Source: a virus
Length of the DNA stretch: 64,000 nt
Virus record (IMG/VR): IMGVR_UViG_3300047564_005910
Coordinates: 32,001-96,000 of that record
Direction: 5' to 3' (one strand)
Part shown: positions 31,026 through 63,556 of the stretch, in pieces
Layout of the letters: each line of letters starts with the position of its first letter
Numbering within the stretch: the first letter of the stretch is position 1
Program-made: the position numbers and the translations under genes
The notes under the pieces: model-generated
Seen by the model: only the letters and a program-made list of their open reading frames with translations
Databases searched by the model: none
What the model was told of the DNA's origin: nothing

Positions 31026-32056
31026 GAGTTATCTCCGACAATTATATCTATTACATCCCGTGCCCCTTCAGATAAAGAATCTCCGACCGTGTCAGTTGTT
31101 TCTGATCGAGTTGATTGGGATACTTTTCCTACTACGGTTTGTTCATTTATTGTTTGAAAAAGATTTTTACTAGGCATAACCATATCTGTTAAGGTTATAT
31201 TAACTTCATAGACGTCAGGAACGTTACATTTATTACCTGCAGAATCAGTTAATAATCTAACATTGCCGCGGTTATTAACCGTTATATTTGTTACGCATGA
31301 TGCGTAGCTATAGTGTTGTCCTGGTACAGTAACTTCGTAGTAAACGGGTGGTATACCGGTAATAAAATCTCTCTTATTAAAAAGATTTTGATTAATAAAA
31401 AGAAAGCATAGCTCTCGGTTTACTTCCCAGTCTTCTGTATAATATTTTGTAGTATTTTGTTTTGTATTAAAGAGAGGAAATTTAATTGTGTAAGATCTAA
31501 AATCGTGACTCTCCCATAATTTAGGTCGATCCATAATACCTACTTTCGGGTAACCTAACGAGAGCCCTGCTAGTATAGCACCACCAGCAAATTCTTTAGC
31601 TTTATCAACAAATTTTGCAGCTCCTTTTCCCATAACTGTACCTGCAAATCCTTCAACAGCGTTACCGGCGGCTTCTAAAGTATCGAGGGACTTCCATTGC
31701 GGGGTGTTTAACTCGAAATTTATGTCAGTAAAAAACGGCATTCTGTAAACAAACCCTGTTTCTTGATCTCTCGGAAAAAGCTCAGCGTAAGGAGCTAATC
31801 TATCCCCACCACCAACAAAATTAGCAGCTCCTGCAGTATAAAAAAACAACTGCCGCTTTATTGCGCTTTCATTTACAGCATATTCCTTTAAAACAATATA
31901 CGGTGCACGCTCTCTTGCTTTATAACTATAAGTCCAAGGAAACTGGCCATGCACATCAATATAAGCAGAACCACCTGCTGGTACAAACTCATTAGCTAAC
32001 CCAGCGCTGTTAATAAATGATTTTGGCTTACCGCCTTGAGAGTATAGTACTGGCAT
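31022..32056 (-). CDS. Baseplate tail-tube cap, gp48-like
   Basis: FRSYTIKFPLFN, PPVYYEV, SCVTNITVN, YEVNITLTD tube-fold motifs; lies between tape measure and LysM gene. Confidence 0.65.
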   Translation of the reverse strand: MPVLYSQGGKPKSFINSAGLANEFVPAGGSAYIDVHGQFPWTYSYKARERAPYIVLKEYAVNESAIKRQLFFYTAGAANFVGGGDRLAPYAELFPRDQETGFVYRMPFFTDINFELNTPQWKSLDTLEAAGNAVEGFAGTVMGKGAAKFVDKAKEFAGGAILAGLSLGYPKVGIMDRPKLWESHDFRSYTIKFPLFNTKQNTTKYYTEDWEVNRELCFLFINQNLFNKRDFITGIPPVYYEVTVPGQHYSYASCVTNITVNNRGNVRLLTDSAGNKCNVPDVYEVNITLTDMVMPSKNLFQTINEQTVVGKVSQSTRSETTDTVGDSLSEGARDVIDIIVGDNS

Positions 32057-44504: not shown

Positions 44505-45158
44505 TTAGGCTTTTTTATCTTGTTGTGCAAATTCTACAAATTTATAAAACTCAGCACGAGATTGATCGCTTTTATCTAAAAACGCCCCTGACATTCTTGC
44601 AGTCCTCATAGTACTGTCATGCTTAATACCGCGATTCGAACAACAGGTATGATTAGCTTCTATTAATACAGCAACTCCTTTATTCTTTTCGCAGACTTGA
44701 TCAATATACTGATGAATCTGCATTGTAAGATTTTCTTGGACTTGAGGTCTACGTGAAAACCAATCAACGATACGGTTTAGTTTAGACAAACCAATAACCT
44801 TACCCGTCTTTGAAGGAATATAAGCAACGTGTGCTACCCCCATAAACGGTGCGTGGTGATGGGAGCACATCGATACTACCTTAATATTATTTTGACAGAC
44901 CATACCATCATAACCATCTACATTAGCAAAAGCTGTTACTTTGGGCGGAGCAGTATAACACCCCATCGCTAAATCTGTAACAAACGCCTTAGCTACACGA
45001 CGAGGCGTATCGGCACTATTCGGGTCATTACGCCAATCGAAGCCGAGAGCGTCTAAATATTGTTCGTATGCCTGAGCTCCCCTTGATATTAATTCTTCTG
45101 TTTCTTCTGGTGTATGAACTATATTATGATTAGCGTATTGTAGTTTTTTTCTAGACAT
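44505..45158 (-). CDS. folE: GTP cyclohydrolase I
   Basis: [42 protein letters not shown]. Confidence 0.95.
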
Positions 45159-49597: not shown

Positions 49598-50200
49598 TTA
49601 AAAATGAACAATATAATCTATAGAATTTTCTCTAATGAAATTTTCAAAATAATTCAAATTCCAAGGATTATTTTTTCTCATATGAAAGTGCCATTCTATC
49701 GCTAAATGCTTCATGTAATTAAACGTATTGTCTAATAGCATTTTATCTAAAACTTCGCACTCTGCTCCTTCAATATCCATCTTTACATGTATATCATCTT
49801 CTTGGCTAAAATTGTTTTTAACAAAAGTAGAAAAATCAATACATTTTGTTTCCATTTCAACTTTTGGTGGCCATTCAGCCATATGATCTTTTTCTATATA
49901 CGTGGGTATTAAAAAATTTTCATGTAAGATGTTACTAGCACCACCTACCCACTTTTTTTCATACTTACAGAATTCAACATTTAATGTTCTTGATTCATTT
50001 TTATCCCAAACAGCAACGTTATGAATTTTTATATTTGGGTGGGTGTATTTTTCCTTTAAAATATCAAAACTATTTTTATTGGGTTCAAACATGTGGACTT
50101 CAGTATCATCCAACTGAAGCCCCCAATGCTTGAAGTACAGTTCAAATCCTGAACCGATTTGCGATCCGCAATCTAAAAATACTTTTTTATTCTTCGTCAT
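49598..50200 (-). CDS. FkbM-family SAM-dependent methyltransferase
   Basis: FLDCGSQIG, HMFEPN, HNVAVWD, VKMDIEGAE, IEWH. Confidence 0.88.
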   Translation of the reverse strand: MTKNKKVFLDCGSQIGSGFELYFKHWGLQLDDTEVHMFEPNKNSFDILKEKYTHPNIKIHNVAVWDKNESRTLNVEFCKYEKKWVGGASNILHENFLIPTYIEKDHMAEWPPKVEMETKCIDFSTFVKNNFSQEDDIHVKMDIEGAECEVLDKMLLDNTFNYMKHLAIEWHFHMRKNNPWNLNYFENFIRENSIDYIVHF

Positions 50201-50573
50201 CGAAGAGTTTAACCACGTCTTGATCTGCAGGTGCTTGGCCCGGAACAGGTTGTTCAGGCTGAGGCTGGGAAGCTAAACTCATAATTTGCTCATATTGAGC
50301 AATAATTTTAAAATCCAGAACCGGGTCTTTAACAAGAGCGATGCTGTCCTTTGTAAAGGAAACGATTACATCATCTGCTTTATCTGCTAAAAACTCTTTG
50401 AAAAAGAGAGGTAGAATCTGAAGAGATAACTGACCTGTTTGAGGGTTTGGCTGTAAGTGAAGTACAGCTGGATCTTTTACGGTTAAGGTTTTGTCGTTTG
50501 ATTCGACTTCTTGACCGATAATTGTACGGCTAACTGAGTCGAAGAACGCTACGATTTTTTTGTTGTTACTCAT
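50187..50573 (-). CDS. Hypothetical protein, possible Sm-like fold
   Basis: Beta-rich pattern RTIIG..LTVKDPAVL..LPLF..FTKDSI..IIAQYEQ resembling Sm-like proteins of T4-like phages; own promoter TTGCAT-N15-TATAAT at 50585-50611. Confidence 0.55.
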   Translation of the reverse strand: MSNNKKIVAFFDSVSRTIIGQEVESNDKTLTVKDPAVLHLQPNPQTGQLSLQILPLFFKEFLADKADDVIVSFTKDSIALVKDPVLDFKIIAQYEQIMSLASQPQPEQPVPGQAPADQDVVKLFDDEE

Positions 50574-50611: not shown

Positions 50612-51559
50612 CTACTGACCCATAGCTTTTTTAGTGTAATATTTCGGGTTTACTAAAACAGGGGGTAGCATGTCAAAAGATGTAGCTCTACACGGATTAA
50701 TGTCTAATGAACCACGACGTGAGTATAGTAGAGTTACAGCACAAGAATCTACTTCAGGACATTTCATAATTTCTGTATAAAGCTTTTCAGCACAAAACTC
50801 GTGAAACTCGTTAACCTCTCTAAGAGAGACTACCTGTTTAAAAAGTGATTCAGGTTTAAGAACACAACCAAGGGTGTTAATTGAGATATAAGCGGCTCCT
50901 GTATCTTTTTGCTTTGTATGGCGGCAACGAGAGCGTAATGCATTAGTAAAGAATTTATTTGCATAAAGGGCTTTGTTTTCTTTTATACTATAACCAAAGC
51001 CCGAATAATTAACACTTTCAAATTCAAGATGATTTTTTTCTGCATTATAATCAGTAATTTCAATACTCTCAAGATCTTTATCTAAGAAAGATTGTAAATC
51101 AATATAACCTGTCATAGGGAAGATTTCATTAATCTCATCTCCTGACCTAAAAAACTTAACATCAACGGAAGTTTCTAAAGCTTTTTCGAGATCTGTCTTA
51201 ACTTGTAATTCGTAATTTTGAATAGCAGAATCAAGCGACTGGCCCATCTTACACATGTCAAAAGTATTAAGGTAAAGTTTAGCAGACTTCGATTCAACCA
51301 TATACTTAGAATCGGATGAATAGGTGTACTTTAAAGTACCAGCTATAGGTACACCGCTATTAAGAAGAAAAGTAGCTTCATGGCAGTGCCAAGTATCATA
51401 CCCAACAAATTCATCCCCTTTAATACCCCATCCATCTCGAGCGAGTTTACGGGGCATCGGGTTAAGAAGAGAGGGATCAAAACGGTCAGTGTAAACAGCA
51501 TAAGAGGCTGAAGACCCTAACGATTTTGAAGCGATATCGTTTAAGTTTGTTGTACTCAT
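50612..51559 (-). CDS. queF: NADPH-dependent preQ0 reductase, bimodular (YqcD-type) QueF
   Basis: QueF motif ESKSAKLYLN in the N-module; LRSRC....D catalytic Cys/Asp, NEFHEFC and YSRRGSLDINP in the C-module. Confidence 0.93.
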   Translation of the reverse strand: MSTTNLNDIASKSLGSSASYAVYTDRFDPSLLNPMPRKLARDGWGIKGDEFVGYDTWHCHEATFLLNSGVPIAGTLKYTYSSDSKYMVESKSAKLYLNTFDMCKMGQSLDSAIQNYELQVKTDLEKALETSVDVKFFRSGDEINEIFPMTGYIDLQSFLDKDLESIEITDYNAEKNHLEFESVNYSGFGYSIKENKALYANKFFTNALRSRCRHTKQKDTGAAYISINTLGCVLKPESLFKQVVSLREVNEFHEFCAEKLYTEIMKCPEVDSCAVTLLYSRRGSLDINPCRATSFDMLPPVLVNPKYYTKKAMGQ

Positions 51560-52104
51560 TGTTTTAAATATTTTTCTATTGTTTTCATTCTTTGCTCAAC
51601 AGAACCTTTAAGCCGAATGACTTTTTCTTTATTCTTCGGAGAAATTTTATACGTAATTAAATCTTCGAACAGAACAATTATATCATCTCTAAATTTAAAA
51701 TCCACAGAACGTTCTCCGTCATCGACTAATTTTACATCAGATGGATCTGTATAAAAAACGTAGTCTAACTTATCAAACAGTAAACTAAATACACTATTAA
51801 AAGCATGTAAAACATCTTCTTTTACCTTGCCTTGATTTACTTGATATTTTGTATAAACATAACCATCTAAAATACAACGATCAAGCATTAAATTTTCTTC
51901 CGGTTTAAGATGATTCTTAATATGTTCAGCTAAAATGTATAGTTGAGTTTCTGTACCGCCAATCTCATTAATCTTTACATCATACGTCCGGCGAACATAC
52001 CTCGTAACCTCATCAACAAACTTATAATCTTTATAAGTCTCTTTGCACTTATTTAGTAAGGTAGTTTTACCTGTACTCTGAGCACCTGTAAATGAAACTC
52101 TCAT
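51556..52104 (-). CDS. P-loop nucleoside/nucleotide kinase (AAA_28/NadR/thymidylate-kinase-like)
   Basis: N-terminal FTGAQSTGKTT, E-x-x-R, LDRCILD, DDGER lid, LKGSVEQR; promoter TTGATT-N15-TATAAT at 52111-52137. Confidence 0.8.
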   Translation of the reverse strand: MRVSFTGAQSTGKTTLLNKCKETYKDYKFVDEVTRYVRRTYDVKINEIGGTETQLYILAEHIKNHLKPEENLMLDRCILDGYVYTKYQVNQGKVKEDVLHAFNSVFSLLFDKLDYVFYTDPSDVKLVDDGERSVDFKFRDDIIVLFEDLITYKISPKNKEKVIRLKGSVEQRMKTIEKYLKQ

Positions 52105-52111
52105 ATCTTTA

Positions 52112-52648
52112 TTATAGTCTATATCTTAAAAAATCAACCCATAATTCAGAAGCAGCTTTATGAGTTTTAGTAAAAATTTCATCAAGAGTATTGTTTTTTA
52201 TATCAACAATATTTTGTGCTAGTATTGGCCCAGCATCTAATTCAGCAATACATTTGTGTATAGTGTTACCTGAGTATTTCAATTTTTCTTCAAAAGTACG
52301 AACTTGCGGGTCTTTACCCTTTAGGTGAGGGTACGTAACTAAAGGGGCTGGATGCAAATTATATATTTCGTACAAGTCACATATTTCAGGTGGTATGATA
52401 CGTAACCAACCGTGTAGTGTTACAAGAGATCTACTAGGTATAACATTTTTATATTCTTCTACTGTTGGTTTTTTTGGTAGCCAAATAAACTTGTCATGAA
52501 ATTCATCAAATAATTCGGGTTTAATTTCTAAAAATTTATCTTTAGTTTTATTTGTAATAATAAAATCAGGTACCCGGTTAAGAGTTTTTATTAAATTAAA
52601 GATTTCAGAACCTGTTTGACTAAACAGTGTTACCCAAGGTCTTTTCAT
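52112..52648 (-). CDS. PurN-like 10-formyl-THF-dependent formyltransferase (candidate preQ1 formyltransferase, DpdN-like)
   Basis: FSQTGSE, HGWLRII, YNLHPA (catalytic N-x-H), GNTIH...ELDAGPI (catalytic D). Confidence 0.85.
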   Translation of the reverse strand: MKRPWVTLFSQTGSEIFNLIKTLNRVPDFIITNKTKDKFLEIKPELFDEFHDKFIWLPKKPTVEEYKNVIPSRSLVTLHGWLRIIPPEICDLYEIYNLHPAPLVTYPHLKGKDPQVRTFEEKLKYSGNTIHKCIAELDAGPILAQNIVDIKNNTLDEIFTKTHKAASELWVDFLRYRL

Positions 52649-53475
52649 TTACAGAGATTTCTAAACTGCGTAATATTCCAAAAAGAGTCGTATACTTGCT
52701 GACTTGTTAGATTAGCATCAATAAAATCAACAAGTTTTACTGACCATTTTTCTGAAAGACCGGGACCCGGTTCATATCTTTTACCAAGAATGCCCGCAAC
52801 AATTGGATTTGAAGTATCAATAGTTTCAATATACTCACTCAAGTAATTATCAGAATATAGAGAAAATTCCCAAGGCAAAGATGCTCCGAGTAGATGATGT
52901 GGTTTGTCAACATCTAAAACGTCATTATCGTAAAGATCGTCAAGAAGCTTTACCCGGCCAATAGCATATTTAAACCATTTATTATCTTCATGGGACTTGA
53001 CAAATCCCGGTACATTAATTTGTGACCAGTCACAGTTATCTAGGTAATAAGAATAATCAAACGAAATAGCAATTTTATCAACCTTTGGTGCTACAAAACG
53101 ATAACAGTCAACAATATCCTGATAGGTCTTACCCTGTACAACACCAATTTTACGTCCAGGTAGATCAGAATACTTTGTTAGGAAGTTATCCATTGACATA
53201 CAAGTACCGGCTGTATCCTCTAAAACATCAGGGATAACATACTCGAAGGGTTTAAGTTCTTTGACCCAATACGCAAACTGATCCGGATCAAAAGAGGTTC
53301 CTAGCTCAAAAATAGAGTTATCTAATAGAACTCTGCGACCGTAATCTACGGATCTGAAATAAAATTCTTTGTACGCCTGATTCTCAGGCAATAAATGCAC
53401 CAAGCAATAATCATAGTCATTATAACCCCAAGAGTATGGAAGCAACGATACGGGTGTTTCGTGTGAGATTTTCAT
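52645..53475 (-). CDS. dpdA: Divergent TGT-fold base-exchange enzyme (DpdA/DpdA3-like 7-deazaguanine transglycosylase)
   Basis: TGT-barrel-like motifs in the expected order: LLDNSIFELG, IPDV, GVVQG, HHLLG, IDTSNP; coupled to formyltransferase and QueF. Confidence 0.7.
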   Translation of the reverse strand: MKISHETPVSLLPYSWGYNDYDYCLVHLLPENQAYKEFYFRSVDYGRRVLLDNSIFELGTSFDPDQFAYWVKELKPFEYVIPDVLEDTAGTCMSMDNFLTKYSDLPGRKIGVVQGKTYQDIVDCYRFVAPKVDKIAISFDYSYYLDNCDWSQINVPGFVKSHEDNKWFKYAIGRVKLLDDLYDNDVLDVDKPHHLLGASLPWEFSLYSDNYLSEYIETIDTSNPIVAGILGKRYEPGPGLSEKWSVKLVDFIDANLTSQQVYDSFWNITQFRNLCK

Positions 53476-53482
53476 AGAAGAA

Positions 53483-53510
53483 ATTATATACTAATTACAA
53501 AGTAAATCAA
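53483..53510 (-). promoter_or_regulatory. Promoter TTGATT-N16-TATAAT, 7 nt before the TGT-like ATG
   Basis: Read on the reverse strand; overlaps the 3' end of the polymerase gene. Confidence 0.7.
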
Positions 53511-56040
53511 ATAAATCTGTTTGTACTTCTTTACCAATAATAGGTAATCTCCAGCCAATAGCGTCATAAACTTGTTCAATAGGAGGAGCTACAATTTTAT
53601 TAAACATTTTATCGTAATCAATTTTAACATCTAAACTAAACTCTTTCGGGTATTGATTTACAAAACCAATAGCGTCAAGGCCGTATGGGTTTTTTGCGGC
53701 ATAAAAGTATTTGATCTTTTGACCTGAATTGATACGTTCATACTTTGTTTCAAGGTTATATTTTTCTAATAAGAGGTTATATGCAATTGCTGCTTTAACA
53801 TGGCATGGTGTTGCTAAATTGAATTTTGCTAAAGAGGCGCCACCAGACCATTTGTCGTATTCTTTAACAGCTTTTCGAAACGCTGCATCTTCTACTTTAA
53901 GTGTTTTAAACAGTTCATAAGCTTCTCTGTATACCTCGTTTGTCTTCTTTACATCTTTAGTTAAGAACGCTGTATTAATAGTTTTTTTAATTAACTCTTT
54001 AACTTGTTTAGGTGTTGTTGAACGTGCTAACTCAACACCAACATATTTAAATTTACTCGTAGGTACACCTTCTTCGTCTAGAATGTGAAGTATGTATCGT
54101 TTCTTCTGTAAAAAAGAACCGACATCAGCTATGGCTTCTCGCTTAAATTCAAATCGCGGATCAGCAGAGTTTAACTCTTTACGAGCCCAAGAAAGAATTT
54201 CTGTATTTAAATGTCTGCCAAGAGCATCAACTATTTTATGAGACTCGGAAGTAATGGCGTCATCTTTTACAAGCGGTAGTTTAAGTTTATTAAGGATAGG
54301 TTGTATAGTTGTGTATAGGGAGTCGGTGTCCCCAGATAAAATAAGAGATTCATCGACATTAAATTTTTCTTTAGCCCATGCGTCAATAATAGCCCCTCCT
54401 GCTTTAGCAACAGCTTGACCGGTTAACGTGATTGAAGACGCGTTATCAATATCCATAAACGCCGAATGTTTGTTTGCAAACGTTCCGTAAATAGAGTTAA
54501 GGAGAATCTTTAACGTGTACTGTAGAGTATCAAAGTATTGTATTTGGGAAATTGTTTTTGGATCTTTTTGTTTTGTTTTTTTAAGCTCGATCATTTTTTG
54601 ACGAGCATAGACTCGCTCATCATAAATGCTATTAATCAGGTTAGGACAAACACCTTTGTATTTTTGAGAGTATAAAACACCTGCTTTAGACAAAGAGACA
54701 TTTTCTTCGGTTAGAAATTTTTTAAGTTTCTTGGTGTTTATTGTAAAAATATTACCATTAACAAGACGTATATCGAGATCTTCATCTCCGTCAACATTAC
54801 CTGTAACTATTTTACCTAGTTTAGTTTCTGGTGAAATATTAAGAGTTATGATTGTGTTAGGGTACAGAGAGTTAACGTCAAAACTTACAATAGCTTCTTT
54901 AAGACCTCGTTCAGGCTCCCTTACATAACCACCTTCAAGAGACTCTCTAATAGTATCGTTTTTAAACGTTGGTATGACGTAGCCTTGTTTGTCAGCCTGT
55001 AAAGTCATAGCTCCAGTAACAATAGATACCTTACCGAGAGCTCTTTCGAAATTTGTACAACCTTTATAAGACAATAGACGAATAATTTTAAGGTAGTTAA
55101 GTTTTTCTTCTAATTTACGAAGCAGATCAACGTCCTGGATGTTATAGTCAACAAAATTTTCCCAGTCAGTGTCAGCTAAAGAGGATAAGTTTGTAGCATT
55201 AATAGCAAGCTTACCTTCCCCTAATTCGTATTCAGCAATATAATTTAACGAAAATGATTCTCGGTCACCTTTTGAATAGGTTTTGTAAATCTCCATGTAG
55301 TCTAAACAACTAACACCTGAAATATACCAACGACCTACATCTTTACCAAACTTAGCAAAATTTTCTCTATACTGCATTTCACCGATTGGTGATAATTGTT
55401 TTATAAAATCTTCTCCGAGCAGGTTTCTAGCACGGTTAATAATATAAGGAATATCGAACTGCTCAGTATTCCACCCTGTTAAAATATCTGGAGGATCTTT
55501 TTTCCAGAACTTAACAAAGTTATCAAAAAGTTCTTGTTCTGTTTTACATAATATGTATGTAACATTATCGAGTTTAGGTTTATAGTCGTGCTTTAACCCC
55601 CAGGTGGTTATCTGGTTTGTCAGGGTATCATATACCGTAATAAGTACTACAGGGTCCTTAGCTTTATGAGGTACAGGGAACTCATTAGGAGAGTACGTTT
55701 CAATATCGATAAAATAAACTTTTAGTGGAAACTTACTAAACTCTTCTTTATGAACGTCGTCTTTAAACGTTTCAACCAAGAATTGCTGATCGACAGGCAG
55801 ATTGCCAAATAACCTTTTAGTACTTGTTTCGTTTACGTACTTGTTTCGTTCAAAACTATTTTTAAAAAAATGTCTTTTTAGTGGTGTTTTAAAGATCGAG
55901 ACAGCGTCTTTTGATTTTTCACTCTCTGTATAAAGAAACGGTGTAAACGGAACCTCAGTATCAATTCTATCGCCGTCAGAAGTCCACGTTCTTAGATATA
56001 CAGTTCCTTCTCGTGGCCTATAAGTTGCGTTCCTAAACAC
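53491..56040 (-). CDS. gp43: Family B DNA polymerase
   Basis: Exo DIET, GWN..FDIPY, YNIQD; Pol SFDVNSLYP, KILLNSIYG, GDTDS, KKRY; GTG start. Confidence 0.97.
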   Translation of the reverse strand: MFRNATYRPREGTVYLRTWTSDGDRIDTEVPFTPFLYTESEKSKDAVSIFKTPLKRHFFKNSFERNKYVNETSTKRLFGNLPVDQQFLVETFKDDVHKEEFSKFPLKVYFIDIETYSPNEFPVPHKAKDPVVLITVYDTLTNQITTWGLKHDYKPKLDNVTYILCKTEQELFDNFVKFWKKDPPDILTGWNTEQFDIPYIINRARNLLGEDFIKQLSPIGEMQYRENFAKFGKDVGRWYISGVSCLDYMEIYKTYSKGDRESFSLNYIAEYELGEGKLAINATNLSSLADTDWENFVDYNIQDVDLLRKLEEKLNYLKIIRLLSYKGCTNFERALGKVSIVTGAMTLQADKQGYVIPTFKNDTIRESLEGGYVREPERGLKEAIVSFDVNSLYPNTIITLNISPETKLGKIVTGNVDGDEDLDIRLVNGNIFTINTKKLKKFLTEENVSLSKAGVLYSQKYKGVCPNLINSIYDERVYARQKMIELKKTKQKDPKTISQIQYFDTLQYTLKILLNSIYGTFANKHSAFMDIDNASSITLTGQAVAKAGGAIIDAWAKEKFNVDESLILSGDTDSLYTTIQPILNKLKLPLVKDDAITSESHKIVDALGRHLNTEILSWARKELNSADPRFEFKREAIADVGSFLQKKRYILHILDEEGVPTSKFKYVGVELARSTTPKQVKELIKKTINTAFLTKDVKKTNEVYREAYELFKTLKVEDAAFRKAVKEYDKWSGGASLAKFNLATPCHVKAAIAYNLLLEKYNLETKYERINSGQKIKYFYAAKNPYGLDAIGFVNQYPKEFSLDVKIDYDKMFNKIVAPPIEQVYDAIGWRLPIIGKEVQTDLFDLLCN

Positions 56041-59194: not shown

Positions 59195-60226
59195 TTAATT
59201 AAAGAGCTTTTTTGTCCAAGTTTTTGGAGTGTTCTCTGTTTGTATTTCTATTGGAAGATGATAGTTAAAGCAACGTACTGGTTGGGTTTTTATCCATTCT
59301 ACTGTTTCTTTAATAGTATCATCGCAGCTGTAAAGTGTTTTGTAATTTAGGATCCCGCTCGCTTTCTGAGTGTCAACCCATGCGTATTTTACTTCTCTCG
59401 GTCTATCAGGCATGTGTTGTATTTTTGGCTCCATATTACAAGCAGCACCTACTTTATGAGCGAGGTCTAAAATAGTAATTTCAGTGCCATCGCTAGGGCC
59501 GATATTAAAAACTTCTTTGCTATTAATAGTATCACGTTTTTCGTATAGAGATACGAACGCGTCAATGCAGTCACTTACGTGAGAAAAACTTCTCTTTTGT
59601 AAGCCGTCCCCATAAACATAAACAGTTTTATTATTTAAAATAAGGTTAGTAAATATGCTCATAACATTTCTAAAAGGATCCGAATAGCATTGATTCGGGC
59701 CAGCGACGTTATGAGGAACCATATGATATACCTTTATTCCATAAATATCGCTCATTAAGTTTAGGTGTTGTTCAGCATGAAGTTTTGCTAGACCGTACGG
59801 GTCAATAGGCTGTGGTGTTGAATCTTCTACGAATGGTGTAGGTAGATTACCGTATCTAGCCATACTGCTTGTATTTATAAACATTGGTGCACCGCTTGCT
59901 ATAGCAGCACTACATATGTTAACTGTGCCTGCGTAAATATTTTCACATATTGTTTTAGGGCTAAAAACACTTAACCCTTCATGAGCAAGTGCAGCACAAT
60001 GTATAACTAGATCAGCTTTTATTTCTTTAAAATGTTCAGCTATCGCTTGAGTATTTAAAATATCGGCCTGTATAAAAGTAAAATTAGTTACGTTAGGTAA
60101 ATTCGAATAATAACCACCTATTAAATTGTCAATCCCGTAAACTTTCCAACCTAAAGATAAAAATTTATATGCCAAATGACTACCTATAAGACCGGCTACT
60201 CCTGTTATTATTACTTTCTTTTGCAT
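59195..60226 (-). CDS. NAD-dependent nucleotide-sugar epimerase/dehydratase
   Basis: ITGVAGLIGSH, HCAA, SSMARYG, PYGLAK (YxxxK), GDGLQKRSFSHVSD. Confidence 0.92.
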   Translation of the reverse strand: MQKKVIITGVAGLIGSHLAYKFLSLGWKVYGIDNLIGGYYSNLPNVTNFTFIQADILNTQAIAEHFKEIKADLVIHCAALAHEGLSVFSPKTICENIYAGTVNICSAAIASGAPMFINTSSMARYGNLPTPFVEDSTPQPIDPYGLAKLHAEQHLNLMSDIYGIKVYHMVPHNVAGPNQCYSDPFRNVMSIFTNLILNNKTVYVYGDGLQKRSFSHVSDCIDAFVSLYEKRDTINSKEVFNIGPSDGTEITILDLAHKVGAACNMEPKIQHMPDRPREVKYAWVDTQKASGILNYKTLYSCDDTIKETVEWIKTQPVRCFNYHLPIEIQTENTPKTWTKKLFN

Positions 60227-60232
60227 TTTTTT

Positions 60233-60967
60233 TTATTTATACCCTTTAATAATAGTTCTACCGTGTAAGAGACTTGAACTTGCTTCCCCGCAATTAGGCT
60301 TACCTGCTGCTACATTTAAAATAGAATTGTCCCACTTTTTCCACGATTCTTTAATCTCGGGCTTATCCCCCCAAATAAAAAGGTCCCAGTGAGGATAACT
60401 CTCTTCAGGTATATTGCGGATTACCCATTTCGGGTGATGTCCGTCCCATTTTTTAAGCCAATGTGGCGTTGAAAGTATAGCACCAGGTTTATTAAGAGGT
60501 GATTTCCAGTCTTGATCGTAATCTGCTTCGTGACTTTCGTATATAGCCAAGTCAGCCTCTCTTAAGCGCCACACCCACTCTCTATCTTCCCAACCACCAT
60601 GTACGTATCTTTCATCCCACCAACCAATATTACGAATTAGTTCTTTAGAAAAAGCAGAAAAACCAATGCCGTACAAACACGTCCAAGCAAAGCCAGACTC
60701 TAAATGTTTTATCATTTTTTTAATCTCATTGGGTTTAGGGTGAGCACGATCATTAATAAAAAAGATCCATTCTGTCGGGGATGTTGCTACAGAGTGATTT
60801 AACATTAACGAATATGACTCATACATAAACGGATACCGGTCGATACGGTTATTCCAATGTACTTTATATTCTTGTTCTAGTGGTTTAAGCGCTTCAATTT
60901 GTTTATTAACAACGTCCCTGCTACAGCCACAGTGTAGACAAATTGTAAATTCTGTTATTTTAAACAT
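60233..60967 (-). CDS. GT-A (GT2-like) glycosyltransferase
   Basis: FFIND, IGWWDERYVHGGWED. Confidence 0.75.
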   Translation of the reverse strand: MFKITEFTICLHCGCSRDVVNKQIEALKPLEQEYKVHWNNRIDRYPFMYESYSLMLNHSVATSPTEWIFFINDRAHPKPNEIKKMIKHLESGFAWTCLYGIGFSAFSKELIRNIGWWDERYVHGGWEDREWVWRLREADLAIYESHEADYDQDWKSPLNKPGAILSTPHWLKKWDGHHPKWVIRNIPEESYPHWDLFIWGDKPEIKESWKKWDNSILNVAAGKPNCGEASSSLLHGRTIIKGYK

Positions 60968-60968
60968 A

Positions 60969-61781
60969 TTAAATCGCTGGGTAACGTTTTGTATATTCGT
61001 CGACTAACCACGGCTGACCACCAGCGAAGTGTCTATATATTACATTATCAGGATTTGCACGCGAAATGTCGTATAGTGCTGGCTTACCAGTTGTCTTATC
61101 CCCGGTTTCTTCGTAAAGATGTGTAACGTTCCATTCCGTAGGAAGTACCTCAACATGTTCAAGTAGTTCATCTAAAGAAAAGATAGTGTGTTCTGTTACT
61201 TGAGAATGTAACCCGTTGTTTGGCAGTTCATAAAATGATTGCCAACTATGTGGTTTAATACCGGCGTTAATATAATAAGCTTGTTGATCTCCGTGGTAAA
61301 ATGTACATTCTTGATTATAATGTTCGTTCCAGAGTTTAAAATCTTTACATTTGTAAAATCTTTCTTTTGAGATTAAGAGATCAACAAGGTTACGAGACCA
61401 TTCATCAATTTTAAGAATAAAAAAGCCAAAGCAGTGGGTATTACCTGAATCAATTGCGTAAGTAAAGCTTTTTGTCGGTGTGTGAATTTTATCCATTTGA
61501 CAAATAAACGTGTCAGCGTCAAACTGATAAACCATATCCCCGTCTTGAAGTTTACCTGATGTAAGTAATTTTTTAAAGATATGCCATCTGTTAAAATGAA
61601 AATTGTCACCAGGCCCTAATTCCGGAAAATAAATTTGAGGAGTAAAATCATTCTTAGTAATTTCGACATATTTTAGCCCGTGAATTTCGCAATATCTCTT
61701 ATTACGTGGGGAAATATATTGTTGGAACAATTTTTCTTTCTCGCCGCTATATATAGCTAATGTAACAAAATACTTTTTCAT
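60969..61781 (-). CDS. GT-A glycosyltransferase, GT34/GT8-like
   Basis: RYCEIHGLKY, FDADTFI (DxD), DQQA, LPTEWN, HFAGG; promoter TTGCAA-N17-TAAACT (61788-61816) 6 nt before ATG. Confidence 0.75.
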   Translation of the reverse strand: MKKYFVTLAIYSGEKEKLFQQYISPRNKRYCEIHGLKYVEITKNDFTPQIYFPELGPGDNFHFNRWHIFKKLLTSGKLQDGDMVYQFDADTFICQMDKIHTPTKSFTYAIDSGNTHCFGFFILKIDEWSRNLVDLLISKERFYKCKDFKLWNEHYNQECTFYHGDQQAYYINAGIKPHSWQSFYELPNNGLHSQVTEHTIFSLDELLEHVEVLPTEWNVTHLYEETGDKTTGKPALYDISRANPDNVIYRHFAGGQPWLVDEYTKRYPAI

Positions 61782-61799
61782 TAAGATAGTTTATTGTGT

Positions 61800-62591
61800 T
61801 TATAGACTTTTTGCAAGATCTAGTATTGTATCTTTATAGTAATTAAAATCGCATACTGTAGTATCTTTTTGAATTGTTTTTTCGTATTTTGATTCTAATA
61901 ATTCCTGGGTTATGTCAGACCATTTATCTATAAACAGTATCGGGCTATTCTTAAACGTATGTAACGGCACACTTTTTAAGCAAATAGGAATTGTACCTAC
62001 ATACATAGACTCCCATATACGGTGACAATCGACGCTATTACCTGGTGGTGAAATTACATATTTGTATGTACTAAGTTTTCTCAAGTAGGTCTCAAAATCT
62101 AGTTTCTCTTTTTCAAAATCAATAAAAGGTATTTCTTTTAATTTTTGTAATGCTAAAAATCTAGCATTATGATTTGTGTTTATATCAAAATTACAGTAAC
62201 AAAAATTTTTCTTATCATTTTTTTCTTTAATAATTTTTATAACAGTGTCTTTATTACCGTGAGGCCAGACTTCATTAGCCATTCCTATTGGTATAGGGAA
62301 TAATTTTTTATGTATGGTATGACAGTTCATGCCAAACCACATAACAAGATTTTCGTTATTAAGAATAGAAAGATATTGATTAGTTACAGGGGCGTCGGCA
62401 TCGTGTGTTATTAGAATAAACTTGTAATTAATTTGTGGTAACACCCTCGCCATAAAGACAGGTATGTTATCTGAGTGTAAAAAGAAGATTTTATTTTCTG
62501 GTTTTAGTTCGAGTTTAATCCTGTTTCGTGCAATATAGTTGTTTGCTAAGTCTAAAAAACGGTCAGGGGTTATAATAAAACTGTTTGTCAT
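61800..62591 (-). CDS. Exostosin (GT47)-like glycosyltransferase
   Basis: ILITHDAD, PIPIG, YKYVISPPGNSVDCHRIWESMYVGTIPI. Confidence 0.75.
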   Translation of the reverse strand: MTNSFIITPDRFLDLANNYIARNRIKLELKPENKIFFLHSDNIPVFMARVLPQINYKFILITHDADAPVTNQYLSILNNENLVMWFGMNCHTIHKKLFPIPIGMANEVWPHGNKDTVIKIIKEKNDKKNFCYCNFDINTNHNARFLALQKLKEIPFIDFEKEKLDFETYLRKLSTYKYVISPPGNSVDCHRIWESMYVGTIPICLKSVPLHTFKNSPILFIDKWSDITQELLESKYEKTIQKDTTVCDFNYYKDTILDLAKSL

Positions 62592-63556
62592 ATATTTAAA
62601 AAGTGTTTAATTTTCTTTTTATTGTGTACATGTAAATTAAAAATGGGTATATTAATACCCTTGTAAACTATAAAGGGTTCTTTATTAAATTTTACTTCAA
62701 TATTTTTATCTATTATTTCTTTACCAACAAAATGTCGATATTCACAATACCCTTCTGGGTGACCGTTATTAGTGCCTCCTAAAAATTGTCCGTAAGAAGT
62801 GGGATCAAATACAGCTTGAACAGTTTCAAAGTTTTTTGAATACTCCCCGAGCGGTACGCACGGTAACATTTTGTATTGTTTTGAGCCTTTACGGATTAAA
62901 TCTAAAAACGCCATATCGGTTATCCAAGGCGCAAAATGACCAACATACGGGCGTATTACTTGCTCTCCTTTATTCAAAAGTTTTATGTGTAGTTTGTACA
63001 AAGTATCCCCTGCTGCAGCATCTTTAATATATATTAAAGAAGGAGCCGATGAGTTTGGGGCTTCGTTGCACCATCCAAAATCTCCTGCAGAAAATAGACT
63101 ATTTATTTTTGTAAAATCATTAGCAAAAATTATATTATCGGCTTCTATATGAATAGTATTTTCGATATTGAACTTTTTCACTGCTATAGTCAAAACTATA
63201 ACACGAGCAAAGGTAGTAAACCAAAACGGATCGATGCGATAACGAGACCATTTAGCATTTAAAACTTCAATGTACTGTTTAAATTCATCAGTAGGTACAA
63301 TCTCTTGGTCGACATCGATATAGGTTATATTTGTTTCGCCAAGCGTTTTTTTAATAGTTTCGATCTCTTTACTGTGACTTATTAAATAAGTGTTATCAAA
63401 TTTTTTTCGGTTATAATTTAATGTGTCTAGGTAATATTCAGGTACACTCTGATAACTATACGAGCTCGTTTGAGTTTGTGGTAGTGCACAAAACTTATCG
63501 TTTAAAAAGACATAAACAAGACTGTTTGACATTTTAATCTTTATAGAGTGTTTCAA
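62588..63556 (-). CDS. Putative GT-A-fold glycosyltransferase
   Basis: FWFTTFAR, HIEADN, TDM, FDPTSYGQFLGG, FNLHVHNK; lies in the sugar cluster. Confidence 0.55.
   Translation of the reverse strand: MKHSIKIKMSNSLVYVFLNDKFCALPQTQTSSYSYQSVPEYYLDTLNYNRKKFDNTYLISHSKEIETIKKTLGETNITYIDVDQEIVPTDEFKQYIEVLNAKWSRYRIDPFWFTTFARVIVLTIAVKKFNIENTIHIEADNIIFANDFTKINSLFSAGDFGWCNEAPNSSAPSLIYIKDAAAGDTLYKLHIKLLNKGEQVIRPYVGHFAPWITDMAFLDLIRKGSKQYKMLPCVPLGEYSKNFETVQAVFDPTSYGQFLGGTNNGHPEGYCEYRHFVGKEIIDKNIEVKFNKEPFIVYKGINIPIFNLHVHNKKKIKHFLNI

Follow-up and report, generated by a model that had tools for sequence, protein, structure and literature searches.

The analysed window (64,000 nt; positions 32,001 to 96,000 of IMGVR_UViG_3300047564_005910) belongs to an uncultured freshwater T4-like phage, with matches confined to assembled freshwater metagenome contigs. 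The contig is 112 kb long and ~53% complete, and the negative gene searches reported below apply to it. Five ORFs on the minus strand, all in one direction, encode a family B DNA polymerase (PolB), a putative DpdA3-type transglycosylase, a formyltransferase (DpdN), a kinase (Kin1) and QueF (Table 1). The start and stop codons overlap as ATGA at 52645-52648 and 51556-51559, and the remaining gaps are only 7 nt (52105-52111) and, behind the PolB stop, 15 nt (53476-53490). No terminator-like site was found on the minus strand within the five-gene block. The ORF listing and the sequence read-out thus agreed with the original prediction, made from the sequence before any database search, on the gene positions, both overlaps and both gaps. 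The identical gene order was found in dozens of independent viral contigs and one cultured phage, so the arrangement is not due to chance.

Table 1. Features of the polymerase-linked 7-deazaguanine locus
Feature	Position	Strand	Evidence or remark
PolB, T4 gp43-type family B DNA polymerase, 849 aa	53491..56040	-	DNA_pol_B 4e-26, DNA_pol_B_exo1 7e-22 (Pfam); phrog_262 6e-199
Predicted DpdA3-type 7-deazaguanine transglycosylase, 276 aa, minimal TGT-fold TIM barrel	52645..53475	-	immuto DpdA3 homology and AF2 fold
DpdN, PurN-fold formyltransferase, 178 aa	52112..52648	-	Formyl_trans_N 4e-13; immuto DpdN homology; start overlaps DpdA3 stop
Kin1, AAA_28 P-loop kinase, putative nucleoside-kinase type, 182 aa	51556..52104	-	AAA_28 8e-15
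QueF, bimodular, preQ0 reductase yielding preQ1, 315 aa	50612..51559	-	QueF_N 1.5e-21 and QueF 3e-9; start overlaps kinase stop
128-aa conserved neighbour with acidic LFDEE tail, between QueF and uvsX	50187..50573	-	position kept in 13 related loci
FkbM-type methyltransferase, two genes downstream of QueF	49598-50200		
FolE, GTP cyclohydrolase I, adjoining gp32, 5.5 kb downstream of module	44505..45158	-	GTP_cyclohydroI 1.7e-49 (Pfam)

PolB was ~32% identical to the gp43 proteins found in Pelagibacter phage HTVC008M and T4-like cyanophages. The order DpdA3-DpdN-kinase-QueF is the same as in Flavobacterium phage immuto_2-6A, with identities of 45, 46, 32 and 36%, respectively, and by homology the four genes behind PolB are very probably a diverged orthologue of the immuto module. 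The DNA of immuto_2-6A contains 345,000 fdPreQ1 per 10^6 nt and lacks dG, formyl-preQ1 replacing all G (Cui et al. 2023, PMC10516641). Orthology and synteny with the immuto module make formyl-preQ1 DNA the best prediction for this phage, and the base itself is not new. The original prediction had pointed, correctly, to a Flavobacterium phage with formyl-preQ1, DpdN and DpdA3, which is immuto_2-6A (PMC10516641), and its assignments of PolB, a TGT-fold DpdA-like protein, a PurN-fold formyltransferase, a kinase and QueF held in the Pfam/PHROGs, homology and fold comparisons. This phage differs from immuto in being a T4-like myovirus whose polymerase belongs to family B, where immuto has PolA. In its module DpdN follows DpdA3 directly, with no small ORF in between, and neither a PRA-PH/MazG-like hydrolase gene nor one for a phosphoribosyltransferase adjoins it.

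DpdA3 aligned with the immuto_2-6A DpdA over 96% of the query (tblastn; 45.1% identity, E 4e-54) and with its CP220 homologue (40.9% identity, E 6e-44), and matched phrog_19058 (1e-48). On this homology to the immuto and CP220-group proteins, the 276-aa protein is assigned to the DpdA3 subfamily. No Pfam family matched it at E 0.01; the TGT model (PF01702) failed to detect it and was unmatched anywhere in the contig at E 10. The AF2 model (pLDDT 92) has eight strands and forms a TGT-type (beta/alpha)8 barrel, for which the best Foldseek matches were all TGT (E 8e-9) and VIA-align gave Z 17-18 over ~229 residues to ArcTGT, bacterial TGT and DpdA 7ui4, which bears out the earlier TGT/DpdA-like call. 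Against the bacterial DpdA of Salmonella Montevideo (PDB 7UI4; PMC10164549), the TIM barrels matched with Z 17.4 and rmsd 3.0 A over 227 residues.

All 26 aligned DpdA3-family sequences share three Asp residues, which in this protein are D52 at the end of strand 3, D83 following strand 4, and D220 on strand 8. These lie at strand ends equivalent to those in bacterial DpdA and TGT and would supply the general acid/base, base-recognition and nucleophile functions of the active site. Their spacing is 31/137, compared with 35/126 for Asp95/130/256 of DpdA, a mapping made by topology and not by residue-level superposition. In contrast to the 413-aa bacterial DpdA, the protein has neither a large Ins8 nor a Zn site. 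The stretch between strand 8 and helix 8 comprises ~36 residues, versus a 128-residue DNA-binding Ins8 in bacterial DpdA. The Zn site CXCX2CX22H, which pins Ins8 and is described as a conserved feature of TGT and DpdA, is missing: no invariant Cys or His follows D220 in the 26-sequence alignment, and Cys occurs in the protein of the window only at 24, 92, 124, 148 and 275. The family is acidic (median pI 5.25). Moreover, modification by bacterial DpdA reaches <1% of G, compared with complete replacement in DpdA3 phages.

DpdN was 46% identical to immuto DpdN (E 4e-53), and its family profile aligned with PurN structures, the best PDB matches, over nearly full length (1e-13). As in PurN (GAR formyltransferase), the N-x-H...D triad (N97, H99 and D138; invariant across 24 relatives) and an N-terminal S-x-x-G-S loop are kept; the latter, an invariant FSQTGSE, aligns with the PurN 'SG(N/T)GSN' loop, which we take to bind the phosphate of GAR. 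DpdN differs from PurN in its length (178 versus about 210 aa), in an invariant LKGKDPQ segment of its own, and in its setting. In related loci it is always embedded in a deazaguanine operon, between DpdA3 and the kinase, or in two cases in a DpdA3-DpdN-QueF cluster with no adjacent kinase. QueF was 36% identical to immuto QueF (E 4e-64); it carries ESKSAKLY at 89-96, presumably the QueF motif, and its catalytic Cys212 aligns with the Cys of immuto QueF. The catalytic motifs, including the three Asp of DpdA3 and the P-loop of the kinase, are thus as intact as the original prediction had described. It had also proposed that formylation neutralises the amine charge and so allows high substitution; this idea is weakened, since 33 of 69 related loci keep the DpdA3-kinase-QueF core and lack DpdN. 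The core machinery is therefore independent of formylation.

Besides DpdA3 and QueF, the contig encodes FolE (55% identical to immuto FolE), QueD (41% to immuto QueD) and QueE. QueC was not found in the ~53% complete contig, so self-sufficiency in preQ0 synthesis is not shown by it. A search of five related partial contigs also yielded no QueC. The 128-aa neighbour had no Pfam or PHROG match and was kept outside the pathway assignment.

Kin1 shared 32% identity with immuto gp203, annotated 'thymidylate kinase', and 34% with CP220 gp057, the genes of both lying beside DpdA3. Its conserved residues, among them a lid arginine, are a P-loop (G7..G12-K13), a DR motif (D75-R76), D129-G130-x-R132 and R172. 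The AF2 model (pLDDT 90) was closest to the NadR ribosylnicotinamide-kinase domain (VIA-align Z 17.6-18.0), followed by dGK, dCK and dNK (Z 16-16.8, with dGK and dCK at about 16.8). Profile (dNK 3e-6, TMPK 2e-5) and model matched only small-molecule nucleoside/nucleotide kinases. By fold and motifs Kin1 is of the NadR-RNK/deoxynucleoside-kinase type, features that do not discriminate between nucleoside and nucleotide substrates or between bases. The kinase is nowhere mentioned by Cui et al. 2023 (PMC10516641), and the original prediction listed it in the module and gave it no role. A second AAA_28 paralogue lies in the contig beside a nucleotidyltransferase-like gene.

In 64 of the 69 related loci, Kin1 is encoded no more than 1.5 kb from DpdA3. 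In distant DpdA3 lineages, non-homologous P-loop kinases occupy the same place, often together with a dNTP/nucleotide phosphohydrolase. CP220 has HD+AAA_33 and AAA_28 genes and Cellulophaga phage phiST has AAA_18 plus MazG; the immuto cluster includes a PRA-PH/MazG-like protein, and in Bacillus phage BSTP12 a P-loop protein lies beside DpdA3. The CP220 group of Campylobacter phages and phiST share with our phage the minimal DpdA3-type barrel and the directly adjoining kinase gene. They carry dADG and dDG, respectively, for all G (PMC10516641) but end at CDG-derived bases, without QueF and DpdN, and their clusters each include a hydrolase of the HD or MazG kind. The AAA_18 kinase of phiST has no detectable similarity to Kin1.

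A route through the nucleotide pool would accommodate these genes. PreQ0, made by phage FolE, QueD and QueE together with a QueC that is possibly host-supplied, would be reduced to preQ1 by QueF. DpdA3, acting on a free deoxynucleoside or nucleotide and forming a covalent intermediate with Asp220, would then swap guanine for preQ1 at the glycosidic bond, and Kin1 would phosphorylate the product. DpdN would formylate the aminomethyl group from formyl-folate, with the 5'-phosphate form as its probable substrate, resembling the ancestral substrate GAR, and the polymerase encoded next to the module would incorporate the triphosphate, on the model of the T4 hydroxymethylcytosine pathway. We tentatively favour this reading, in which DpdA3 is not a DNA enzyme and, with Kin1 and DpdN, yields fdPreQ1 nucleotides for the phage polymerase, though we hold it with slightly less than even confidence; that the module identity and a pre-replicative nucleoside/nucleotide route hold jointly appears evenly balanced.

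The pre-replicative route is favoured because of the proximity of Kin1 to DpdA3, the restriction of its matches to small-molecule kinases, the non-homologous kinases, often with a phosphohydrolase, that adjoin DpdA3 in distant lineages, and the PurN-like loop kept by DpdN. It is also favoured by the lack of Ins8 and the Zn site, and by the acidity of the DpdA3 family, although an acidic pI and small size are compatible with DNA binding. Additionally, the module lies between gene 43 and uvsX, the site at which T4 carries gene 42 (dCMP hydroxymethylase). As in the T4 pathway (dCTPase gp56, dCMP hydroxymethylase gp42 and dNMP kinase gp1), a base-altering enzyme and a kinase may feed the phage polymerase. 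However, the enzymes are unrelated, and DpdA3 action at the nucleotide level is a proposal. Two points from Cui et al. also count for the pre-replicative route: DpdA3 alone gave no activity in E. coli, and they refer to ADG as a free nucleoside in cells infected with CP220 (PMC10516641). The route is weakened by the two related loci with no kinase beside DpdA3-DpdN-QueF. The explanation as a whole is further weakened because QueC and a dGTP-clearing enzyme (MazG, HD and PRA-PH being the candidates searched for) were not found in the ~53% complete contig. Moreover, phage 9g, which is partly modified and has DpdA1, also places its DpdA beside the polymerase and clamp; this weakens the explanation and shows that polymerase linkage is not confined to this module type.

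The published route, with the same module and the same fdPreQ1 product, is a serious possibility, to which we give about one-third credence. DpdA3 would swap G for preQ1 in finished dsDNA after replication, DpdN would formylate preQ1 either within DNA or as a free base, and the kinase would be auxiliary, serving nucleotide or NAD metabolism or acting as a DpdB-like ATP-using helper. All characterised TGT/DpdA enzymes act on a polynucleotide, bacterial DpdA requires an ATPase partner (PMC10164549), and Cui et al. 2023 propose post-replicative insertion (PMC10516641). The missing dGTP-clearing enzyme fits this route as well, and the second AAA_28 paralogue beside the nucleotidyltransferase-like gene could indicate NAD salvage. 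On the other hand, Kin1 resembles nucleoside kinases and not ParB/DpdB, and no DndB/DpdB-like ParB-type gene (PF14072) was matched in the ~53% complete contig. The nucleic-acid-binding Ins8 and Zn elements of TGT/DpdA are missing from DpdA3, and the recurrence of non-homologous kinases next to DpdA3 in distant lineages also argues against this route. Complete replacement of G, which is more typical of pool-level pathways, is a further point against it.

A different final base is improbable. It could be unformylated dPreQ1, should DpdN fail to act on it, or a derivative made by the FkbM-type methyltransferase or by glycosyltransferases upstream of PolB. The literature holds no biochemical demonstration of DpdN activity, immuto included (PMC10516641), and a conserved glycosyltransferase lies immediately before PolB in 14 loci. 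However, the catalytic triad of DpdN is complete and does not vary among relatives, DpdM, which is the validated preQ1 methylase, belongs to DUF3109 and not to FkbM, and the FkbM gene, present in this phage only and in 0 of 80 related loci, falls outside the conserved module. A tRNA or metabolic role, with preQ1 derivatives put into host or phage tRNA and a purN-type auxiliary purine gene, would agree with the tied VIA-align Z values of DpdA3 to tRNA TGTs and DpdA and with the PurN matches of DpdN, but it is highly improbable, given that its nearest named relatives come from phages in which DNA, rather than tRNA, is fully substituted (PMC10516641), that the insertions and Zn site with which TGT grips the anticodon arm are missing from DpdA3, and that DpdN, with its own invariant KGKDPQ motif, is wedged between DpdA3 and the kinase.

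The module type itself was already known (Cui et al. 2023), and the locus adds a further example, in a T4-like phage. If the pre-replicative route is true, DpdA3 would be the first transglycosylase of the TGT superfamily acting on a free deoxynucleoside or deoxynucleotide, and complete 7-deazaguanine genomes would be made before replication, against the published view that all such modifications are post-replicative.

The five genes of the module were co-directional on the minus strand and located where the original prediction had placed them, with two ATGA overlaps, a 7-nt gap and a 15-nt gap after the polymerase stop codon all seen in the sequence. The proposed identities were also borne out, by Pfam and PHROGs for PolB, the formyltransferase (DpdN), the kinase (Kin1) and QueF, and by a structural model for the 276-aa protein (DpdA3), which adopts a TGT fold. 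No terminator-like sites were found on the coding strand within the five-gene block, and the counts from a promoter and terminator scan were at chance level. The source contig, an IMG/VR viral contig of 112,316 bp whose bases 32001-96000 form the window, was ~53% complete according to CheckV.

Features of the module, its surroundings and related loci. Window coordinates are used unless a locus is named; L030 and L086 are fetched viral loci with DpdA3-like genes, and L003 is part of the source contig.
Feature	Position	Strand	Basis or remark
PolB, 849 aa	53491-56040	-	ORF listing; T4 gp43-type family B polymerase (Pfam, PHROGs)
DpdA3, 276 aa	52645-53475	-	ORF listing; no Pfam match
DpdN, 178 aa	52112-52648	-	ORF listing; Formyl_trans_N (Pfam/PHROGs)
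Kin1, 182 aa	51556-52104	-	ORF listing; AAA_28 P-loop kinase (Pfam/PHROGs)
QueF, 315 aa	50612-51559	-	ORF listing; bimodular QueF (Pfam/PHROGs)
FolE	44505-45158		in window
128-aa protein	50187-50573	-	no family match
FkbM-family methyltransferase	49598-50200	-	Pfam 1.9e-10
Glycosyltransferase, 413 aa	56071-57312	-	
NDP-sugar epimerase/dehydratase and several GT-like genes	59195-63556	-	GT-like genes ~260 aa each
QueD/QueE cluster	L003:9801-14274		
Kin2	L003:12191-12820 (contig 108191-108820)		
145-aa protein upstream of DpdA3	L030:6146-6583		no Pfam match
DpdA3/DpdA4-like protein of Bacillus phage BSTP12	L086:4336-5684		weak DUF6610 match

The original prediction correctly pointed to a Flavobacterium phage with formyl-preQ1 DNA. 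In the DNA of this phage, immuto_2-6A, Cui, Hutinet et al. (NAR 2023, PMC10516641) found no dG but 345,000 formyl-preQ1 deoxynucleosides (fdPreQ1) per 10^6 nucleotides. The immuto_2-6A genes are ordered DpdA3, small ORF, formyltransferase, 'thymidylate kinase' and QueF. The window proteins were 46% (DpdN), 32% (kinase) and 36% (QueF) identical to those of immuto_2-6A. Based on this match, the window module is, at the level of sequence, a new, diverged member of the published system, and it is very probably a system that replaces G with fdPreQ1.

An unnamed protein from the CP220 group of Campylobacter phages shared 40-41% identity with DpdA3. Because a profile search of PDB sequences gave no TGT match, its kinship with TGTs is visible by fold search only. 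An AlphaFold model based on 26 homologues (pLDDT 92) had tRNA-guanine transglycosylases as its best PDB matches (Foldseek E 8e-9), and archaeal TGT, bacterial TGT and DpdA (7UI4), which inserts preQ0 into bacterial DNA, were tied as its closest relatives in VIA-align (Z 17-18, rmsd ~3 Å, ~229 residues). Three invariant residues located where strands 3, 4 and 8 end (D52, D83 and D220), predicted to be catalytic, matched the DpdA triad Asp95/130/256. In TGTs and bacterial DpdA, the nucleic-acid-binding surface is formed by Ins1, Ins3 and Ins8 and a conserved CXCX2CX22H zinc site. Whereas Ins8 of DpdA comprises 128 residues (30% of the protein), only ~36 residues separate strand 8 of DpdA3 from its final helix. 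Conserved cysteines were not found in DpdA3, and the family was uniformly acidic (median pI 5.25 and net charge -10 in 78 sequences).

A search of the protein collection with a cut-off of E 1e-3 gave 4,372 homologues of DpdA3, all lacking a precomputed Pfam domain, and DpdA3-like genes occurred in at least 559 viral loci. Among the longer homologues listed, there were no DpdA3-kinase fusions and only two DpdA3-QueF fusions, and the listing of the size class to which fusions of ~450 aa would belong was filled by unfused proteins. These two apparent fusions, the metagenomic proteins P0121 (531 aa) and P0122 (568 aa), shared 47% identity with the DpdA3 of the window and contained both QueF Pfam domains; they could equally be read-through gene calls. 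In L030 and nine other loci of a FolE-linked lineage, a conserved 145-aa protein was encoded directly upstream of DpdA3. Its D..D-V-K..E pattern resembles, judged by eye, a PD-(D/E)xK nuclease; it had no Pfam match and was rejected as a MazG analogue.

DpdN aligned over nearly its full length with GAR formyltransferases (E 1e-13), and its putative catalytic residues N97, H99 and D138 were invariant in 24 relatives. Its invariant N-terminal FSQTGSE aligned with the SG(N/T)GSN loop of PurN, which presumably binds the 5'-phosphate of GAR. GAR is a primary amine a few atoms from a ribose 5-phosphate, and a preQ1 nucleotide would be alike. In QueF, the ESKSAKLY motif and Cys212 were present. Formylation had been proposed to be what makes high substitution tolerable; this idea was weakened, since DpdN is lacking from about half of the relatives, which otherwise share the core.

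The word 'kinase' is absent from the 2023 paper (PMC10516641). The P-loop of Kin1 was complete. Eighty viral loci were fetched, and counts refer to the 69 with at least 1.4 kb downstream of DpdA3; these loci are interrelated, and the counts are not independent events. Kin1 was located within 1.5 kb of DpdA3 in 64 loci, farther away but paired with DpdN in three, and missing in two. The gene orders were DpdA3-Kin-QueF (33 loci), DpdA3-DpdN-Kin-QueF (28 loci), DpdA3-DpdN-Kin (6 loci) and DpdA3-DpdN-QueF (2 loci). Compared with solved structures, the Kin1 family profile matched small-molecule kinases only, namely deoxynucleoside kinase (3e-6), thymidylate kinase (2e-5) and the ribosylnicotinamide-kinase domain of NadR (6e-4). 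The closest structures to the Kin1 model (pLDDT 90) were the NadR kinase domain (Z 17.6-18.0), followed by human dGK and dCK and Drosophila dNK (Z 16-16.8), and all 50 of the matches listed were nucleoside kinases. Kin1 is unlike DpdB, the ParB-fold ATPase needed by bacterial DpdA (PMC10164549), and no DndB/DpdB-like gene was found in the ~53% complete contig.

Distant DpdA3 lineages showed the same kinase/hydrolase theme with non-homologous parts. An HD+AAA_33 fusion and an AAA_28 kinase flank DpdA3 in CP220; a MazG enzyme, DpdL and an AAA_18 'ATPase' precede DpdA3, which adjoins Pol III alpha, in Cellulophaga phage phiST; a PRA-PH/MazG-like hydrolase lies just upstream of DpdA3 in immuto_2-6A; and a P-loop protein is encoded beside a DpdA3-like gene and PolA in Bacillus phage BSTP12. 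The BSTP12 protein, mis-annotated as NadR, is a distant DpdA3/DpdA4-like protein (24% identity) encoded between the P-loop protein and DNA polymerase I, next to Gat-QueC, QueD and FolE, which hints at a similarly organised lineage among Bacillus phages. In contrast, phage 9g, which is only partly modified, has DpdA1 in a cluster without a kinase.

Among the supply genes, QueD and QueE were on the contig but outside the window. Their cluster contained, in order, genes for a nucleotidyltransferase-like protein (208 aa), a 118-aa protein, QueD, a 72-aa protein, QueE, Kin2 and a 477-aa protein. Kin2, a second AAA_28 paralogue directly after QueE, was 26% identical to Kin1; two AAA_28 copies were likewise present in the DpdA3 phages of Campylobacter and in a relative of 171 kb. 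Neither the contig nor five related partial contigs yielded QueC, and the 477-aa gene was discarded as its substitute (no PHROG or Atlas lead; poor model). Searches of the contig for MazG, HD, PRA-PH, QueC, DndB and Pfam TGT were all blank, which, at ~53% completeness, does not indicate absence from the phage.

The contig encodes a T4-like myovirus gene set (gp32, UvsX, gp41-type helicase, gp46-like protein, terminase, sheath, gp19 tube and baseplate). A nucleotide similarity search against cultured phages gave no match, and the polymerase was ~32% identical to those of Pelagibacter phage HTVC008M and cyanomyoviruses. The contig DNA occurs in freshwater metagenomes (contig-level DNA datasets only, two of them possibly the source), and no RNA datasets with the contig sequence were listed among the sequencing runs. 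The module lies between gene 43 and uvsX, at the site where T4 carries two genes for DNA modification, 42 (dCMP hydroxymethylase) and beta-gt.

Several neighbouring genes were also observed. The 128-aa protein between QueF and uvsX, with an invariant PLFF.EF core and an acidic C-terminal LFDEE tail, was kept in 13 loci; it was dropped as a MazG-like dNTPase because it had no family match and its alignment showed only the acidic tail. The FkbM-family gene between it and uvsX had no homologues in 50,697 phage records and was absent in all 80 related loci. The glycosyltransferase gene directly upstream of PolB kept its position in 14 related loci (69-78% identity), and the epimerase and GT-like genes lie beyond gp46; the sugars involved may be destined for DNA or for a surface structure. 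In some close relatives (L016, L019 and L020), an additional ~1.4-1.7 kb separated PolB from DpdA3, and the shortened PolB ORF of L019 could mean an inserted mobile element.

We consider the chances about even that exchange precedes replication. DpdA3 would swap the base on a free deoxynucleoside or nucleotide, the product would then be phosphorylated, and the modified nucleotide would finally be incorporated by the polymerase. This route is favoured by the recurrence of a nucleoside-type kinase, the frequency of dNTP/nucleotide phosphohydrolases in DpdA3 clusters, the stripped-down and acidic DpdA3 barrel, the PurN-like phosphate loop in DpdN, and the completeness of G replacement. The free ADG nucleoside in CP220-infected cells (cited in PMC10516641) and the failure of DpdA3, tried alone, to work in E. 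coli (PMC10516641) point the same way. Cui, Hutinet et al. (PMC10516641) concluded that insertion is post-replicative, with exchange in finished DNA, a route that seems to us possible but somewhat less probable. All characterised relatives act on a polynucleotide, the adjacent kinase is missing in two loci, and a dGTP-clearing enzyme was not found in the half-complete contig, all of which argue against the pre-replicative route. The link to the polymerase stood as adjacency but is not special to such a module, since DpdA1 also adjoins the polymerase in phage 9g, which likewise speaks against pre-replicative exchange.

By itself, the module only widens the known range of the published system, to a deep-branching T4-like lineage from fresh water, and the system is common, with more than 4,000 DpdA3-like metagenomic proteins besides the viral loci. 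The kinase question matters more than the module itself. If the base is made at the level of free nucleosides or nucleotides, the mechanism now accepted for genomes fully substituted with 7-deazaguanines would have to be revised, the TGT superfamily would gain a new activity, and 7-substituted 7-deaza-dGTP analogues, useful as reagents, could be made enzymatically.
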